Shown in pieces: positions 6,618 to 56,763 of a stretch of DNA of 64,000 bases. The DNA is from an uncultured Candidatus Saccharibacteria bacterium. Its GTDB lineage: Bacteria; Patescibacteriota; Minisyncoccia; Phycocordibacterales; Phycocordibacteraceae. The DNA is taken from the NCBI GenBank assembly GCA_964434255.1, contig CAYSUL010000001.1, positions 27,720-91,719 of the forward strand, in the 5' to 3' direction. Made by a program: the position numbers and the translations under genes. How positions within the stretch are numbered: the first letter of the stretch is position 1; each line of letters opens with the position of its first letter. The notes below the pieces were generated by a model, which ran no database searches, was not told the origin of the DNA, and worked only from the letters and a program-made list of their open reading frames with translations.

Positions 6618-6773
6618 TTACGCTGCGAAGAAAACGCCTAGGTAGTACGGCCAGAGCACGAGCGCGAGGACGCCGGGCCAGAATGCGAGGCCGAGATATC
6701 CGAGAGTGAACAACCAGCCCACTATCCATGCGCCTCCTGAAATGCTGTGATGCTCTATTTTGATTTTTTCCAT
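6618..6773 (-). CDS. 51-aa hydrophobic micro-protein (single TM helix)
   Basis: MEKIKIEHHSISGGAWIVGWLFTLGYLGLAFWPGVLALVLWPYYLGVFFAA. ATG lies 15 nt after the tRNA-Ser 3' end. Stop is 16 nt before the ATP-grasp start. Confidence 0.5.
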   Translation of the reverse strand: MEKIKIEHHSISGGAWIVGWLFTLGYLGLAFWPGVLALVLWPYYLGVFFAA

Positions 6774-39214: not shown

Positions 39215-39255
39215 GGGGGCATTATACGGAATTACTGAGGGAAGCGGAATCGCGG

Positions 39256-39274
39256 CCTGGGACGATGCTGGAAC
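39256..39274 (+). repeat. L-type repeat copy A (CCTGGGACGATGCTGGAAC)
   Basis: Member of a 5-copy family. Followed by a 33-nt leader almost identical to the one after copy C. Confidence 0.7.
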
Positions 39275-39322
39275 CCTTATGCAATCTATGTTAGGTTCTG
39301 TCTAGACTGAATGGAGGCGGAT

Positions 39323-39697
39323 ATGAATATCCCAATCGGTACTCGCCTGGGCGTGGCGCCCAGCCTTCTTGCCCAAATCCTTGCCGGCTTTACTGGTAAG
39401 CCCCCGCCGATTCGCACCGGCAGCGTGGTGTACCGGGAAATCGGCGAGCGGAGCAAGCTACCCCTGTACACCCTGGCGTTCGACGATGGTAGCACTGACT
39501 GCTATTTCGAATCTCAGATGATCATTCCCGAGACTTGCGTGTGCGGGACCCAAATGGATGAGGTCTGCTTCATCGACGGAACCGACAACTGTCTCGCCTG
39601 CCACGAGCTACATGTGATGGAACAGACTGGCGCAGGGGTTGTCTTTTCTCCAGCTCATAAACGTCGGGCATTCAATCTCGTCCGCCCCGAAAAGTGA
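39323..39697 (+). CDS. hypothetical zinc-ribbon protein (cargo of module A)
   Basis: GGAGG RBS 5 nt before the ATG. Cysteine pairs C-x-C...C-x2-C suggest a zinc ribbon. Confidence 0.55.
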   Translation: MNIPIGTRLGVAPSLLAQILAGFTGKPPPIRTGSVVYREIGERSKLPLYTLAFDDGSTDCYFESQMIIPETCVCGTQMDEVCFIDGTDNCLACHELHVMEQTGAGVVFSPAHKRRAFNLVRPEK

Positions 39698-39711
39698 GAC
39701 CACCCACAGAG

Positions 39712-39737
39712 CCACCCGACCCTGTCGGGTGGTTTTT
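39712..39737 (+). terminator. terminator ccacccgac-cct-gtcgggtgg-TTTTTGTTTT
   Basis: Perfect 9-bp stem plus a long T-run. Confidence 0.85.
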
Positions 39738-39746
39738 GTTTTACCA

Positions 39747-39771
39747 CTGGCAGACTAGGCCTCGAATCTAC
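39747..39771 (+). repeat. R-type repeat copy 1 (CTGGCAGACTAGGCCTCGAATCTAC)
   Basis: tRNA-3'-end-like. Overlaps the stop codon of the convergent HAD gene. Confidence 0.7.
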
Positions 39772-40460
39772 ATCTCATAAATCACATCCTTCCTCTCCAC
39801 CACGACTGGCCAGCCATGCTTCTTCGCATGCCGATAGAGAAGACGGTTCGGATTGAACGCGACCGGGTTCTCGACCATCGTAAGCATGGAGATATCACTC
39901 TCGGTGTCCCCTACCCCATAGGAATTCTTGAAGGTGAGGTTCTCCTTCTCGACCGCGCGCTTGAGTACCGCACTCTTGTTCATGATGAGATGCTCGTCCG
40001 CTATCTCGCCGGTGAAGCGGTTACTGGCCCCTGTCTCGTAGAACGTGCCATAGGACTTGTGGAACCCGAGCTCGTACGCGAATCCGTCCACGATGAACTT
40101 CGGCGAGTGCGAGATGGCAAGGAGGAAGTATCCCTTCGCCTTCAAATCATCGACGAGATCGCGGGTATAGCGATACGTCCTGTCCTTCTTGGCTTCAATT
40201 ATCTCGCCTGCTACGTCAGCAACATCGCCATACGGCGCCCCCTTCGCATGCTTACCGAACGCCTGCACTACTTTCTTTATAAAAGGCTCGTACTCCCCTT
40301 TTCTGTTCAACCATTCGAGCTGCGAGGTCTCATAGCTCTTCCGGGCGTCTGCCGGGAATATCTCTCGCTTGATCAGCTCCTCGACGAGCTCTATGAGGAG
40401 CGAGGAGCGGAAGAGTGTGCCGTCTATATCGAATACCGCGACGGGCTGCTGCTTTTCCAT
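39768..40460 (-). CDS. HAD-superfamily hydrolase (phosphoserine-phosphatase-like, HAD-IB)
   Basis: DIDGTL motif I. Cap domain. Motifs III/IV GDTESD. Confidence 0.85.
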   Translation of the reverse strand: MEKQQPVAVFDIDGTLFRSSLLIELVEELIKREIFPADARKSYETSQLEWLNRKGEYEPFIKKVVQAFGKHAKGAPYGDVADVAGEIIEAKKDRTYRYTRDLVDDLKAKGYFLLAISHSPKFIVDGFAYELGFHKSYGTFYETGASNRFTGEIADEHLIMNKSAVLKRAVEKENLTFKNSYGVGDTESDISMLTMVENPVAFNPNRLLYRHAKKHGWPVVVERKDVIYEM

Positions 40461-46640: not shown

Positions 46641-46785
46641 TCTTGCATCAGACGAATTGTTTACGGCTTAGTTGTAAAAATGCTACATCACAAGTGATGG
46701 AGGTAAGCCGTAAACAGCTCGTCTCATACGCACGATTACATAAAAGATATCATATATCCTTTTGCAAGTCAACAGCCCCCCGGTA

Positions 46786-46805
46786 GGCTCGGACGGTGTT
46801 GGAAC
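46786..46805 (+). repeat. L-type repeat copy E, degenerate solo copy (GGCTCGGACGGTGTTGGAAC)
   Basis: 15/19 identity to the L core. Precedes the candidate sRNA region. Confidence 0.45.
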
Positions 46806-47005
46806 CTTGATTTGTCTTAGAATCTCTATACTCTAACCTCGGGTGTTCGGGCAACACAATTGGCTAGCCCAAACGTGGCCATTAGTTCCTGCGCAGGCAG
46901 GAGCTGGTCTCAGAAGTAGCGATTAGCTACCACAAGGTGACGAACTCAATACCTGAGAAACGCTGACAGAGATCATTCCTCGACTTTTGGTGCTCGAACA
47001 CTTCC

Positions 47006-47032
47006 AGACCACTTCATGTGGTCTTTCTTTTT
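47006..47032 (+). terminator. terminator agaccac-ttcat-gtggtct-TTCTTTTTG
   Basis: Perfect 7-bp stem plus a T-run, 13 nt before repeat L-B. Confidence 0.8.
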
Positions 47033-47044
47033 GCGTACTAAAGT

Positions 47045-47073
47045 CTGCTGGGGGTCTGGGACGATGTTGGAAC
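47045..47073 (+). repeat. L-type repeat copy B (CTGCTGGGGGTCTGGGACGATGTTGGAAC)
   Basis: Core sits inside a GGGGTC...GACCCC hairpin (47051-47090). Confidence 0.7.
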
Positions 47074-47102
47074 TTCACTAATACGACCCCATGACCCGAT
47101 AG

Positions 47103-47571: not shown

Positions 47572-47616
47572 CATTGCAGCAGCCCTCACACTTCGATGAT
47601 GTGGGGGCTTTAATAT

Positions 47617-47642
47617 TGCTGGCAGACTAGGGATCGAACCTA
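47617..47642 (+). repeat. R-type repeat copy 2 (TGCTGGCAGACTAGGGATCGAACCTA)
   Basis: tRNA-3'-end-like. Its CTA is the stop codon of the convergent metallopeptidase gene. Confidence 0.7.
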
Positions 47643-48043
47643 TTTGTCCCCTCCTCCTCCCGACCCTGCACATGCGGCTCATCCATGCCGAAATAGTGGC
47701 CGAGCTCATGCCAGATAGTTTCGCGTATCACGATGCGTATCGCATCCCGGAATTCCCTATCCATCTCTTCTGCCTCTTCGATGATAGGTAGCCGATAGAG
47801 CGTGATGGTGTCCGGCATGGTGCCACCAATGCCATACTCGCTGCCGCGCTCCGAGAGCGGAACGCCATGATACAGACCGAGCAGGGTCTCTTCGTGTTCG
47901 AGCCCCTCTTCCTTCCTAACTTCTTCGCTCAGCTCGTCCTCGATCAGAAGCGCGACGTTCTTCACCGACCGCTCGAATCGCTCCGGCACCTTCTTCCACT
48001 CCTCTGCGGCTATCGCCTCGAATTCACGTATATCCATGTCCAT
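47627..48043 (-). CDS. zincin-like metallopeptidase-family protein (DUF1025-like)
   Basis: 138 aa with HExxH motif WHELGHY. Confidence 0.75.
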   Translation of the reverse strand: MDMDIREFEAIAAEEWKKVPERFERSVKNVALLIEDELSEEVRKEEGLEHEETLLGLYHGVPLSERGSEYGIGGTMPDTITLYRLPIIEEAEEMDREFRDAIRIVIRETIWHELGHYFGMDEPHVQGREEEGTNRFDP

Positions 48044-52885: not shown

Positions 52886-54670
52886 CTAGCGGCGATTCTT
52901 CGAACGATCGCTCTCGGTGAGCCCCTGCTTACGCAGACGCACCGAAAGTGGCGTTATCTCGAGATACTCGTCATCCGTCATGACCTCAAGACCGCGCTCG
53001 ATGCTGAGAGTGAACGCGGGGACCAGGTTGATGGCTTCATCCATACCGGACGAACGGACGTTGCTCTGGTTCTTTCCCTTGGTAGGGTTCACGACCATCT
53101 CTTCTCCCTTCGAAGTGTTGCCCACCACCATACCTTCATAGACTTCGGTAGCCGGGGTGATATAGAGGACGCCGCGCTCCTGCATGCCCCAAAGCGCATA
53201 GCCGAGCGCCTTGCCGGTTGCCATGGAAATCATGGAGCCCACCTGGCGCTTCTTTATCTCGCCTGCGTACGGCTTGAAGCCGAGCACGCGCGTTGAAAGT
53301 ATTCCCTCGCCCTTGGTGTCGACGACGAACTGGTTGCGATACCCAAGAAGGCCGCGGGTAGGACCTTCGAGTGTGAGGCGCACCGTGTCGCCGTGCTGCA
53401 CAAGGTTCATGAGCACGAATGCGCGAGTACCGAGGCGCTCGATGATGGAGCCCTGGAACTCGGTCGGAGTATCGATAGTGACTTCCTCGTATGGCTCGAG
53501 CTTCTGGCCCTCTTCCTCGCGGATGATTACCTGCGGCTGGGAGACCTGCATCTCGTATCCTGCGCGGCGCATGTTCTCGAGGAGGATGGCGATGTGGAGC
53601 TCGCCGCGGCCCGAGACCTTGAAGGCGTCAGGGGACACGAAGTCCACCTTGAGTCCCACGTTCACTTCGAGCTCGCGCTCGAGGTATTCGCGAAGCTGGC
53701 GGCTCGTCACGTACTTCCCTTCGCGGCCCGCGAACGGTGAATTATTCACGAGGAAGTTCACGGTGATGGTCGGCTCATCAATAGCGATTGCTGGCATCGG
53801 CTCCATAGCAGGGTCGGTAGTGATGGTCTCTCCGATGAATACGTCAGGAAGACCTGCGACGATCACGATGTCGCCTGCGGACGCTTCCGTAGCTTCAACG
53901 CGCTCAAGACCCTTGAAGGTGAATATCTTCGTCGTCTTTCCGTTACGCGCAGTGCCGTCAGGCTTCTTCACGATGACGTTCTGTCCCGGAGTGATGGTTC
54001 CTTCGTACACGCGGCAGATGGCGAGGCGGCCGAGGAAGTTATCGTACGCGAGATTGAATGACTGGAGCTTGAGGGGCTTGGCCTCGTCTCCTGCTGCTGA
54101 AGCTGCAGGCACGTTCTCAAGAACGGTATCGAGAAGCGGCTCGAGGTTCACGCGCTCGTCGTCGAGCTTCTTCATAGCAACGCCCTCGCGACCGATGGCA
54201 TATACCACTTTGAAGTCGGACTGCTCATCGCTTGCTCCGAGCTCGAGGAAGAGTTCGAGCACCTGCTCTTCAGCACGATCGGGATCTGCTGCTGGCTTGT
54301 CTATCTTATTCAGAACGACGATAGGCTTGAGCCCGAGCTCGAGTGACTTCTTGAGTACGAAACGGGTCTGCGGCATGGGGCCTTCCTGCGCGTCGACGAT
54401 GAGGAGCACGGAGTCGATGGAACGGAGCACACGCTCAACTTCCGAACCGAAGTCGGAGTGGCCTGGGGTGTCGACGATGTTTATCTTCGTTCCCTTGTAC
54501 TCCACCGAGGCGTTCTTGGAGTAGATGGTGATGCCGCGCTCGTGCTCGAGTGCGTTACTGTCCATGGACACGCCAGCAGCTGCCGCGCCGGTTTCCTTGA
54601 GGATGGCGTCGGTCAGCGTGGTCTTTCCGTGGTCCACGTGGGCGATGATGGCGATATTCCGGGTTTCCAT
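52886..54670 (-). CDS. typA: translational GTPase TypA/BipA
   Basis: AIIAHVDHGKTTL, DTPGH, NKID G-motifs. 594 aa. Confidence 0.95.
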   Translation of the reverse strand: METRNIAIIAHVDHGKTTLTDAILKETGAAAAGVSMDSNALEHERGITIYSKNASVEYKGTKINIVDTPGHSDFGSEVERVLRSIDSVLLIVDAQEGPMPQTRFVLKKSLELGLKPIVVLNKIDKPAADPDRAEEQVLELFLELGASDEQSDFKVVYAIGREGVAMKKLDDERVNLEPLLDTVLENVPAASAAGDEAKPLKLQSFNLAYDNFLGRLAICRVYEGTITPGQNVIVKKPDGTARNGKTTKIFTFKGLERVEATEASAGDIVIVAGLPDVFIGETITTDPAMEPMPAIAIDEPTITVNFLVNNSPFAGREGKYVTSRQLREYLERELEVNVGLKVDFVSPDAFKVSGRGELHIAILLENMRRAGYEMQVSQPQVIIREEEGQKLEPYEEVTIDTPTEFQGSIIERLGTRAFVLMNLVQHGDTVRLTLEGPTRGLLGYRNQFVVDTKGEGILSTRVLGFKPYAGEIKKRQVGSMISMATGKALGYALWGMQERGVLYITPATEVYEGMVVGNTSKGEEMVVNPTKGKNQSNVRSSGMDEAINLVPAFTLSIERGLEVMTDDEYLEITPLSVRLRKQGLTESDRSKNRR

Positions 54671-54774
54671 ATGACGAATCTGGCTTGCGAATAAAATAAA
54701 AAGGCCCCACGGGCAATTGAAAATAGAATACCTTTATATAGATGAAGCGTCAATCATCCTCAGGCGACGAATCC

Positions 54775-54806
54775 CTGCTGCTGAGAGTCCGGGACGATGT
54801 TGGAAC
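54775..54806 (+). repeat. L-type repeat copy C (CTGCTGCTGAGAGTCCGGGACGATGTTGGAAC)
   Basis: Followed by a leader CTCTTATGCAATGCATGGTAGGTTCTGTCTAGAC, near-identical to the one after copy A. Confidence 0.7.
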
Positions 54807-54857
54807 TCTTATGCAATGCATGGTAGGTTCTGTCTAGACACATTCAGGAGAACGTTA

Positions 54858-55151
54858 ATGCCCTCAGGAAACCGAAAGCAGTGGTTGCTCGGGAGTGCTA
54901 CTCCCACATTCCCTGCACGCTTCTGCTCCACCTCTGAAGGAAGGCGGATGTTCCCGGACATTCTCCAAGATGCCTTCGGGCTCAAGAGCATCACAGGCTT
55001 TCATCGCTACGGACGAACGCTCGGTGCGATTATCCCCATCGAGGCCGTTCGGCTTCTCGCCGGCTATCCGGATGCGGTGGACGACGATACGAAGGTCCGC
55101 ATTCGGAACGCAGCCCTGAACCTCCTCGAGGGACAAGGTGATCTACGTTGA
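54858..55151 (+). CDS. hypothetical protein, possible Phd/YefM-like antitoxin fold (cargo of module C)
   Basis: AGGAGA RBS 6 nt upstream. KSITGFHRYGRTLGAIIPIEAVRLL resembles the antitoxin beta-strand region. No toxin partner seen. Confidence 0.45.
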   Translation: MPSGNRKQWLLGSATPTFPARFCSTSEGRRMFPDILQDAFGLKSITGFHRYGRTLGAIIPIEAVRLLAGYPDAVDDDTKVRIRNAALNLLEGQGDLR

Positions 55152-55191
55152 TGGAAGAACCTCACACTCCGCGCCCTGAAAGCGCGGAGTT

Positions 55192-55221
55192 CTTGCTGAG
55201 GGTCTGGGACGATGTTGGAAC
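55192..55221 (+). repeat. L-type repeat copy D (CTTGCTGAGGGTCTGGGACGATGTTGGAAC)
   Basis: Starts 41 nt after the module C gene. Boundary of the AT-rich islet. Confidence 0.7.
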
Positions 55222-55223
55222 TC

Positions 55224-55706
55224 TTACACTCCGATTTGAGGAACCGCGCCCGCCATATACAGAAACATATAAATCAGGAGGACAATGAAAAAACCGATGG
55301 CAAGAAGTTTTCTATTCATTTCTTTACTTTGTACAAACCAGATATGCTTCCAAAATTTATCGTTAGCCCTTTTTGAGAGAAGAACTATCAATCCAAGCAC
55401 AATGGACAGAAACGCAACTACCGGAAGTATGGCTACCAATGCAAGACCCAAAAAACTCAGTGGAGGATAGTTACTTACAATCAGACCTGCACTCAAGAAC
55501 ATTACTCCAAGCAGAAGAGACCGTGCAGGATTTAGATAGCGATAATACCAATAATCTTTCCCGAAACTATCGTCACCTGATTCTCCCTCTTTAGCCGTTA
55601 AATCTGATGTCCACTCCTTATAGAATTTTCTTGAGAAAAACATTGCAAAGCCATAATAGATAGCAGCCACGCCAGTTGCAATTAAGAAGAGTGGAAACCA
55701 GGTCAT
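55224..55706 (-). CDS. hypothetical polytopic membrane protein in ~40% GC islet
   Basis: 160 aa, about four TM helices. The last 8 codons read into the sequence just after repeat L-D. Confidence 0.5.
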   Translation of the reverse strand: MTWFPLFLIATGVAAIYYGFAMFFSRKFYKEWTSDLTAKEGESGDDSFGKDYWYYRYLNPARSLLLGVMFLSAGLIVSNYPPLSFLGLALVAILPVVAFLSIVLGLIVLLSKRANDKFWKHIWFVQSKEMNRKLLAIGFFIVLLIYMFLYMAGAVPQIGV

Positions 55707-55739
55707 ATAAGAAGTATATCGCCTGCAGGATGAGTCCGT

Positions 55740-55765
55740 CCTGGGAGACTAGGTATCGAACCTAC
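55740..55765 (+). repeat. R-type repeat copy 3 (CCTGGGAGACTAGGTATCGAACCTAC)
   Basis: tRNA-3'-end-like hairpin taggt-atcga-accta. Its CTA is the stop codon of mltG. Confidence 0.7.
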
Positions 55766-56763
55766 CGCAAATACGTATCAACGTTCCTCAACTGCCCCGC
55801 ATAGCTCTCGGAGCAGTGTATTACCCCATCCATATCATGGAGGTAGTAGAGGCAGTCAGTATTCTCCGGCTCAAGTACGGCTTTGATGGAAGCGAGGCTC
55901 GGATTAGCAATAGGGTGCGGCGGGAGCCCCGCGTATTTATACGTATTGAATGGAGAGTCGATGTATTTATCATCCTTGGTAGGTGCCGGCCACCAATTCC
56001 CCTTCTTCCCGCGGATGTACTGGAAGGTAGCGTCCACCTGGAGACGCATGCCGGTATCGAGACGATTCCACATAATTCCTGCAACGAGCGCCTTGTCGTT
56101 CTTCGCTGACTCGCGCTCGACGAGCGACGCCATGGTGATGAGCTCGTTCCAGGAGAGGTCCATGTCGGCAGCTTGCTCGGCATACGGTGCGAATACTTCC
56201 TCGAACCGGCCACGCAACCGCTGCGCCACCTGTTCCGGCGATTGGTCCGACGCGATGAGATAGGTGTCGCCGAAGTAAACGCCCTCGATGAGGGTGGCGT
56301 CAGGCGCCGTATCGACCGTCACCCATTTCTCCACCTGCTCATCGGTCCATCCGAGCTTCTTCTGCAAGAGTTCCGCTATCTGCTCCTTACGGAGACCGGG
56401 AGGAATGGTTACCCACGCAAGGTATGGAGGACGCGCGAACGCTTCTGCGAGAGTCCACGCGTCCTGGCTCCGGCTTATCTTGTACCCTCCTTCCACGATG
56501 TCCTCGTGGCCCGTTATCGCATATGCCATACGGAACGCGAGCTCGCTCTTTATGAAATTCAATTCCTTGAGGCCGCTCGCCACTTCCGCGATAGGAGTGT
56601 CCGGATTAACGATGAATTCCTCGGGCTCCGCGTACTGCGCAACCGGCCCGAACATGTTGGAGTAGATAAGGAGGAATACAACGATGAAGGCAACTGCACC
56701 TATGCCCCAGAGGATGAGCGCGCGACGCATATCCCGCTTGGGTCGATAGAACGGAAACTGCAT
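55762..56763 (-). CDS. mltG: endolytic murein transglycosylase MltG (YceG-like)
   Basis: N-terminal TM. YceG domain. Confidence 0.9.
   Translation of the reverse strand: MQFPFYRPKRDMRRALILWGIGAVAFIVVFLLIYSNMFGPVAQYAEPEEFIVNPDTPIAEVASGLKELNFIKSELAFRMAYAITGHEDIVEGGYKISRSQDAWTLAEAFARPPYLAWVTIPPGLRKEQIAELLQKKLGWTDEQVEKWVTVDTAPDATLIEGVYFGDTYLIASDQSPEQVAQRLRGRFEEVFAPYAEQAADMDLSWNELITMASLVERESAKNDKALVAGIMWNRLDTGMRLQVDATFQYIRGKKGNWWPAPTKDDKYIDSPFNTYKYAGLPPHPIANPSLASIKAVLEPENTDCLYYLHDMDGVIHCSESYAGQLRNVDTYLR

Follow-up and report, generated by a model that had tools for sequence, protein, structure and literature searches.

A stretch of 64,000 nucleotides (nt) from an uncultured Candidatus Saccharibacteria bacterium, referred to here as the window, carries between its genes mltG and typA a block of DNA with two copies of a repeat that we call L, two small cargo genes and a second repeat that we call R. 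L is a 35-base site (TTGCTGGCnGTCTGGGACGATGTTGGAACCTTT) conserved in many Patescibacteria lineages, and R corresponds to the 3' end of a tRNA-Gln gene. We conclude that the block, at 54755-55761, is probably a two-cassette array of a Patescibacteria-specific cassette system. Both mltG and typA lie on the minus strand with mltG upstream, which corrects the context given in an earlier note on this DNA, and the block therefore sits between the mltG stop codon and the typA promoter (54725-54753). That note had read the locus as two cassettes stacked at one site, and L-C, L-D, R-3 (the copy of R at this locus), both open reading frames (ORFs) and an AT-rich islet were all found where it had placed them. 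L-C and L-D are repeat copies with 94% identity over 33 nt, and L-D begins 41 nt past the stop codon of the 97-amino-acid (97-aa) ORF, as it had said. The islet, which it had put at about 40% G+C (GC), lies in a low-GC stretch: 200-nt windows over 55200-55799 have GC contents of 0.385-0.44 and those of the flanks 0.56-0.62, and 55227-55740 taken as one piece has 0.409. The features of the locus are:

54725-54753, minus strand: typA promoter TTGACG-17-TATTCT; native flank, found directly after the mltG stop codon in relatives with an empty site
54755-55761, no strand: whole inserted block, 1,007 bp; missing from relatives L122 and L123
54755-54778, plus strand: 24-nt spacer from the typA promoter to L-C; within the insertion and common to strain L121
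54779-54813, plus strand: L-C, the distal cassette-boundary site; core GGGACGATGTTGGAAC, left part TGCTGAGAGTCC
54814-54857, plus strand: leader (..TTATGCAATGCATGGTAGGTTCTGTCTAGA..) and ribosome-binding site; conserved after L elsewhere
54858-55151, plus strand: cargo C, 97-aa protein of predicted Phd/YefM fold; no toxin gene in the cassette
55166-55190, no strand: GC-rich hairpin ACTCCGCGC-CCTGAAA-GCGCGGAGT, read from the sequence; end of cassette C
55193-55226, plus strand: L-D, boundary between the two cassettes; ends in TTA, which complements the stop codon of cargo D
55224-55706, minus strand: cargo D, the islet gene; encodes 160 aa, predicted to form four membrane helices
55285-55470, plus strand: 61-aa antisense ORF with AGGAGG; judged non-coding
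55739-55764, plus strand: R-3, the anchor site; reverse complement of the tRNA-Gln 3' end (GTTCGATACCTAGTCTCCCAG)

R-3 comprises the T-loop, T-stem and acceptor strand of tRNA-Gln, and the CTA at 55762-55764 is the TAG stop codon of mltG. A search of 54600-55900 for known RNA families gave sub-threshold noise only. The idea that the 24-nt spacer is a displaced copy of the mltG 3' end was rejected, as its similarity to that end is no higher than that of shuffled sequences.

We scanned metagenome contigs with MltG and obtained three informative loci (L121, L122 and L123); the MltG of the window itself has no exact entry on record. In L122, whose MltG is 77% identical to that of the window, and in L123 (59%), ATTGACGC, the typA promoter, comes immediately or 5 nt behind the mltG stop codon, and neither locus contains L or R. 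Because these sites are empty, the comparison identifies the 1,007-bp block at 54755-55761 as an insertion, with R arriving as part of it. A third state is seen in L121, whose flanks are 97% identical to the window and which has in the same place, between R and a single L, one unrelated cassette of ~490 bp that contains an ORF, a GGAGG and a TTGACT promoter of its own. Four further contigs (L120 and L171-L173) have the same arrangement of C and D as the window. Alignment of these loci shows that cassettes are replaced between strains at mltG-typA, and since L121 and L173 come from one groundwater sample (ERZ1292623), both array states coexist in one population; the Hainich H51 samples with both states are ERZ1292623 and ERZ1292627. 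Between L120 and the window there are 16 substitutions in mltG and none in the 660-nt cassette region, where the sole difference is a 15-nt in-frame tandem duplication (L120 10405-10419; window ~55308) that makes cargo D 165 aa long instead of 160. Positions 1-150 of L173, compared with 54755-54860 of the window, have an identical flank and an identical cargo C with a different, mosaic L allele (GCTGGGAGTCT...GGAACCTTTCTGCAATCAATGG), which suggests recombination or gene conversion within the L and leader of L173.

L recurs within the window far more often than chance would predict. The 21-mer core of L, allowing up to 3 mismatches, occurs 3 times in the window (0 expected) and its 16-mer core 5 times (0.44 expected). 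We also searched the window with profile hidden Markov models (nhmmer) for L and R that were built solely from sites of other genomes. These found L at 55193-55226 (E 2.6e-10), 54779-54813 (E 1.8e-9), 47045-47080 and 39252-39281, with a weak match at 46791-46811, and R at 55739-55764 (E 3.5e-8), 47615-47642 and 39747-39769. Every L and R match lies on the plus strand, and there are no others in the 64 kb. We ruled out that R is a real tRNA gene in the window, as ARAGORN and Rfam detect none there.

An exact scan with the 16-mer, using one genome per species, returned at least 119 loci. Among the matches listed, the extended L motif is present in at least 38 loci of candidate phyla radiation (CPR) type; the remaining matches are unrelated coding sequences. 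Conservation of L runs from -13 to +21, wider than the 16-nt search key, and reaches 70-96% at positions beyond the key (extended consensus TTGCTGGCnGTCTGGGACGATGTTGGAACCTTTnT). Judged by the titles of the first 80 loci, the lineages that carry L include Saccharibacteria, Parcubacteria/Paceibacterota, WWE3 and Berkel-, Morani-, Wolfe- and Nomurabacteria. L, with or without its leader, is nearly the only DNA that these genomes have in common with the window at the nucleotide level. Copies of L are usually ~180-1,200 bp apart and of constant polarity, all on one strand within each mapped array, and number at least 7 in L038, 4 in L030 and, counting near-matches, 5 or 6 in L009, L021 and L034; degenerate copies persist within arrays. 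The empty sites in L122 and L123, the different single cassette in L121 and arrays of the form L-L-...-R in many Patescibacteria together bear out the proposal that two cassettes are stacked at mltG-typA.

The cassettes between these sites are small and varied. We extracted 72, with a median length of 494 bp; 67 have one ORF and 5 have none, and the ORFs are about evenly oriented relative to L (35 minus, 32 plus). Inspection of the flanks shows T-run, terminator-like hairpins often just ahead of L and TTGACA-17-TATAAT promoters often just after it. Pfam matches were obtained for 16 of 59 cargo proteins and are nearly all different, the domains being those of serine hydrolase, HAD, diacylglycerol kinase, DnaJ, NUDIX, PspC, methyltransferase, CYTH, ClpP, histidine phosphatase and LysE proteins. 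Eight further cassettes, spread over 4 other loci, have the leader of cassette C after L, as does a second site of the window, module A; in all 10 of these cassettes, C and A included, the gene starts 50-75 nt past L on the same strand. Full-text searches of the literature gave no description of the L motif or of cassette arrays in these phyla.

Some further occurrences of L-like sequence deserve mention. An array of at least seven cassettes in Parcubacteria bacterium C7867-008 (L038, 3383-7671) is anchored directly after the TAG stop codon of mltG, as in the window; its MltG is 31% identical to that of the window, whose closer relatives have empty sites. The 3' end of mltG may be favoured as a secondary site. 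More than 30 viral contigs (L131-L170, for example L135 at 6640-6690) share 23 identical bases with L (GTCTGGGACGATGTTGGAACCTT), as do the genome loci L024, L057, L098 and L117, of which the titled ones are proteobacterial. This match is 7 nt longer than the search key and sits inside a conserved coding sequence (..VWDDVGTFDG..) that may be that of a C5 DNA methyltransferase; it may be coincidental or reflect a common origin.

On the R side, arrays end in GCTGGsAGACTAGGGATCGAACCTAG. In 7 loci a complete tRNA-Gln gene on the opposite strand has this sequence as its 3' end. At all three window sites and at least 8 other loci (including L027, L031, L038, L062, L078 and L121), only a 21-26-nt fragment of the tRNA-Gln 3' end is present, which always starts, on the tRNA strand, exactly at GTTCGAT. 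In the window (mltG and HAD), L031, L038, L078 and L121 the fragment is preceded by TAG, the in-frame stop codon of the upstream gene. The arrays are anchored on tRNA-Gln 3' ends, either in the gene itself or in a 24-nt copy. L itself resembles the anchor. Written on the tRNA strand, R reads AGGTTC-GAT-CCCTAGTCTsCCAGCaA and L reads AGGTTC-CAACATCGT-CCCAGACTGCCAGCAA; the two ends, AGGTTC and CC.AG.CTGCCAGCAA, are common to L and the tRNA-Gln 3' end, and the middle of L, CAACATCGT in place of GAT, is different and itself conserved. With its matching ends and differing middle, L is therefore a conserved site derived from the tRNA-Gln 3' end, rather than a copy that has decayed. In L021 (6286-6593) we found three copies of a tRNA-Gln 3' half of at least 45 nt, from the anticodon arm to the 3' end, within 300 bp; one of them adjoins a run of N, so this could be a duplication of the classical island type or an assembly problem at the anchor.

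Comparisons between arrays also delimit the cassettes and show one and the same cassette in different arrays. Cassette C is 74% identical to a cassette in L174 over 430 nt, from the L core at its start through the end of the next L core, and the neighbouring cassettes differ between the two. A rare variant, TTGCTGA, stays with the terminator of cassette C in both the window and L174, and the rest of the L that follows differs. At the R site, L121 and the window stop matching immediately behind CCAG. On the basis of the TTGCTGA association and of this divergence we place the exchange boundary in GCTGG-nnn-GTCT. L038 and L062 have the R-proximal cassette end in common next to different anchor genes. 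Read from L to R, a cassette starts with the conserved right part of L (GTCTGGGACGATGTTGGAACCTTT; cassette start sequence GTCTGGGACG) and ends in TTGCTG(G/A). It typically contains one gene on either strand, often with its own promoter and terminator.

The two other sites of the window add some detail. Module A (39247-39772) is a single cassette between the TAG stop codon of a HAD-family gene and the promoter of a PspC gene. Its L lacks the left part (GCTGGCAGT), its cargo is a 128-aa protein with no Pfam match, and its L-linked leader is 90% identical to that of cassette C over 49 nt. Module B (window 46778-47045) is also a two-cassette array, with a degenerate L (CGGACGGTGTTGGAAC; nhmmer E 0.021) ahead of a 240-bp cassette that has no ORF. 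This cassette has a promoter-like TTGTCT..TATACT and a terminator; since it folds better than shuffled sequences (z = -3.07) and matches no Rfam family, it may be a small RNA cassette. A cassette without an ORF that resembles it is found in L074 (3500-3790). A gene for a zincin-like protein (47627-48043, minus strand) runs into the R of module B (47617-47645), and because its last codons, R-F-D-P-stop, come from the tRNA-Gln-like fragment, the insertion probably rewrote its C terminus.

The cargo of the first cassette at mltG-typA had been described as Phd/YefM-like without a toxin partner. This holds at the level of the fold and for the missing toxin gene, but the window protein itself has no match to any Pfam family, PF02604 included, at E<=1. 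The AlphaFold2 (AF2) model of cargo C has a mean predicted local distance difference test (pLDDT) score of 88, and its top Foldseek matches in the PDB are nearly all Phd/YefM-type antitoxins. The N-terminal domain superimposes on 2odk with a root mean square deviation of 1.7 Å, a template-modelling (TM) score of 0.80 and a probability of 0.97-0.98, with weak E-values of 0.06-0.5. As modelled, cargo C has the Phd/YefM fold: like these type II antitoxins it has a beta-alpha-beta-beta-alpha N-terminal domain followed by a C-terminal helix, and shares with them the pattern S-T-x-E-G/A-R...F-D-R-Y-G-R...A-L-V-P-x-E-A. It differs from them in having no PF02604 match at threshold and no adjacent toxin gene, and in being carried as a single-gene cassette. 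No toxin gene of the Doc, YoeB, RelE or ParE type lies by cargo C; the cassette has room for one ORF only, and the neighbour is cassette D, with a membrane protein encoded on the other strand.

Cargo C belongs to a family of 75 homologue clusters with the conserved pattern STTEGR..FPD.LQ...G.K..IGFDRYGR.LGALVP.EAV.MLAG. PF02604 is the most frequent match among its homologues, although a weak one (6 of 52, best E-value 0.0026). Homologues of cargo C occupy L arrays in other genomes, and a third one (L175) adjoins an L...R pair. The GC content at third codon positions (GC3) of cargo C is 0.63. L and the leader contain a possible promoter for the gene, with TTGGAA in L as the -35 element and TAGGTT as the -10 element. 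The hairpin at 55166-55190 is kept after the cargo C homologue in L174; a simple terminator scan did not list it, and from its sequence it probably serves as a terminator of C and, read from the opposite strand, of D.

For the islet, the earlier note had left the coding strand unresolved between two ORFs, both of which are present as described: a 160-aa ORF with four transmembrane segments on the minus strand, and a competing 61-aa ORF on the plus strand (55285-55470) with AGGAGG 3 nt upstream of its ATG. A single-sequence AF2 model of the 160-aa protein is helical and of low confidence (pLDDT 64), with helices that fit four predicted membrane spans; its hydropathy profile has three strongly hydrophobic stretches and one weaker. 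The minus strand is open for 174 codons, a length matched in 2 of 5,000 shuffles, and when the codons of the cargo D gene are shuffled, 9% of the resulting sequences contain an antisense ATG-initiated ORF of 61 aa or more. Independent gene calls in the ENA and Logan assemblies choose the minus-strand ORF. We judge the 61-aa ORF to be non-coding because its AGGAGG is the complement of the Val-Leu-Leu codons of cargo D. These sequence features resolve the coding strand of the islet as the minus strand, with the 160-aa ORF as its gene and the 61-aa ORF as an ordinary antisense shadow. The pattern of substitutions was uninformative as a test of the coding strand, as the cassettes of L120 carry none.

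Cargo D looks foreign to its surroundings, with a GC3 of 0.38 against 0.70-0.74 in the core genes typA and mltG. Among 5.8 billion proteins its only homologue is the strain copy, and it has no homology to the gene, also of 160 aa, found after L in L174. Cargo D lacks a promoter of its own; as it is encoded on the same strand as mltG, 55 nt downstream, it is probably expressed by read-through from mltG.

We consider integron-like, site-specific capture of cassettes at a tRNA-Gln-derived site to be the likely explanation of these arrays. In this model a site-specific recombinase, whose gene would lie in another part of the genome or on a helper element, would recombine the L of a free cassette with the anchor, with the crossover in or near GCTGG-nnn-GTCT (CCAGC on the tRNA strand). 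New cassettes would enter beside R and shift older ones outward, and the array boundaries would be hybrids, as they are in integrons. On this reading of R-proximal entry, D would be the newer cassette and C the older, because D has a foreign GC content and adjoins R. Cargo C would be expressed from its L-linked leader and cargo D from the mltG transcript.

We looked for the recombinase by a motif scan and by phmmer with a Xer-type integrase in all ORFs of the 64-kb window and of the 8-kb loci fetched from genomes and metagenomes. Several results weigh against site-specific capture. Neither a recombinase linked to the arrays nor a recurring protein family near them was found in the window and the 8-kb loci; the Xer-like exceptions are one gene next to an array, in L074, and a weakly matching fragment (E 2.5e-4) on L126, a short MltG-relative contig. 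L lacks an inverted-repeat partner, and it does not have the dyad symmetry usual for the core sites of tyrosine and serine recombinases. No circular cassette or excision junction was observed. Since the empty sites have no R, the first insertion at mltG must have brought R with it, a step that recombination of L with R does not explain. Finally, L in its Patescibacteria form is missing from the collections of viral, phage and plasmid sequence that we searched (IMG/VR, INPHARED and PLSDB): INPHARED and PLSDB gave no match, and the IMG/VR matches are unrelated coding sequence on contigs whose relatives in the genome scan are proteobacterial. The gene in L074 (4161-5142) encodes a XerC/D-like tyrosine recombinase (Pfam Phage_integrase, E 1e-39), and its TAG stop codon lies directly against the distal L in an array of two cassettes; no other recombinase was seen beside any array in the loci scanned.

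It is possible, though unlikely, that no dedicated recombinase is involved and that L is portable homology, so that RecA-type recombination at the ~35-nt L sites, and at the part of R that resembles L, would swap, delete and add cassettes. The missing linked recombinase and the lack of dyad symmetry in L would fit this, as would L173, in which the same cargo C and flank accompany a mosaic L allele resembling gene conversion, and the degenerate L copies that remain in arrays. Such a process assumes DNA uptake by Patescibacteria, and a length of 35 nt is marginal for exchange by RecA. It also leaves unexplained why L is near-invariant in lineages with housekeeping genes that show no detectable similarity to the window at the nucleotide level, why its polarity is constant, why arrays are anchored at tRNA-Gln and why R has a sharp boundary at GTTCGAT in independent contexts.

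A further, distinctly unlikely explanation is that the arrays arose by serial integration at tRNA-Gln of integrase-less satellites, in the style of cis-mobilisable elements (CIMEs) or tycheposon cargo, using the integrase of a helper phage or island whose conserved attP arm would be L. The position of the arrays at tRNA-Gln 3' ends, the sharing of both L ends with the tRNA-Gln 3' end and the extra, longer duplications of the tRNA-Gln 3' half in L021, of a kind that classical islands produce, all agree with it. Yet IMG/VR, INPHARED and PLSDB contain no helper that carries L, the internal repeats are of L type and not the copies of a tRNA 3' end that classical accretion leaves, and single-gene elements of ~0.5 kb are far below known satellite sizes. 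It is very improbable that L is instead a transcriptional element, the promoter or operator of a native regulon of small genes in a region that is not mobile: TTGGAA in L and the 10 leader-bearing cassettes with a same-strand gene start 50-75 nt on would suit this, but about half of the cargo genes lie opposite to the L strand, many cassettes have their own TTGACA-TATAAT promoter after L, empty sites and strain-level replacement show gain and loss of DNA, and cargo D is foreign in composition.

Three other identities for L were considered and rejected. It is not a dif site of the Xer-dependent mobile element (IMEX, pdif) type, as it has, read from the sequence, no palindromic arms, three arrays lie within 16 kb, there is no GC-skew switch and PLSDB has no match. 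Nor do L and R belong to a miniature inverted-repeat transposable element (MITE) or insertion sequence, being direct and not inverted, and comparison of empty with filled sites shows no target duplication. An attC-like hairpin was also discarded: the best complement to the L core in the 148 nt upstream scores 8.0 of 14, against 8.1 for shuffled sequence, and the consensus L has no stable fold.

Among known systems, site-specific capture of the kind we favour is close to integrons, including the integrase-less clusters of attC sites (CALIN). Shared features are mostly single-gene cassettes of ~0.5 kb, one recurring site of constant polarity with a distinct anchor, diverse cargo largely of unknown function and a cassette content that varies between close strains. 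In contrast to the structured attC sites of variable sequence, however, L is linear and a near-invariant 35 nt; the anchor is a tRNA-Gln 3' end instead of attI, and no IntI gene lies beside the arrays. Integron cassettes are mostly promoterless, co-oriented and served by a platform promoter, whereas many cassettes here have their own promoter and terminator and lie in either orientation (35:32).

CIMEs are elements that accrete in tandem at tRNA gene 3' ends. Genomic islands at the 3' ends of tRNA genes are the subject of the Islander catalogue (PMC4383910). The arrays resemble such islands and CIMEs in their position, in 7 loci, at the 3' end of a complete tRNA gene, in their tandem arrangement, the existence of integrase-less members and tRNA-related boundary repeats; an integrase gene was found within no array element in the loci scanned. 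They differ in that the units are single genes and not multi-kb elements, that L is a distinct conserved site and not a copied tRNA fragment, and that the anchor in the window is a 24-nt fragment beside a protein gene and not a tRNA. Tycheposons are several kb long and carry their own recombinase and replication genes. As described in Prochlorococcus (bioRxiv 10.1101/2020.12.28.424599), they offer a parallel in a streamlined genome without classical gene transfer, in tRNA association and in cargo elements that gather in variable islands. Here, unlike in tycheposons, the cassettes hold single genes, no recombinase family recurs by the arrays, and the host phylum and site sequence are others. 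In its workings the system resembles an integron or tandem accretion at a tRNA gene, yet fails defining features of both, and it looks like an undescribed integron-like system of gene capture. The chance that it represents a gene-capture platform of its own, widespread across Patescibacteria, is substantial.

At mltG-typA, this result accounts for the GC islet, the orphan Phd/YefM-like gene and the apparent conflict between ORFs on two strands. Patescibacteria have tiny genomes, and to our knowledge the route by which they acquire accessory functions is poorly understood. A conserved L that marks exchangeable single-gene cassettes would give a handle on their flexible gene pool, and the L motif could be used to harvest cassettes from metagenomes. 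A conserved site for exchangeable cassettes would also point to an unknown recombinase, and L could serve as a natural landing site for genetic tools in organisms whose manipulation is only starting. We tentatively propose, as an idea that could well prove right, that Patescibacteria own a general gene-capture platform analogous to the integron, with a 35-nt site derived from the tRNA-Gln 3' end, an anchor in tRNA-Gln or a transplanted copy of 24 nt, and an unlinked recombinase. If true, this platform would shuttle single accessory genes between very distant lineages of reduced genome.

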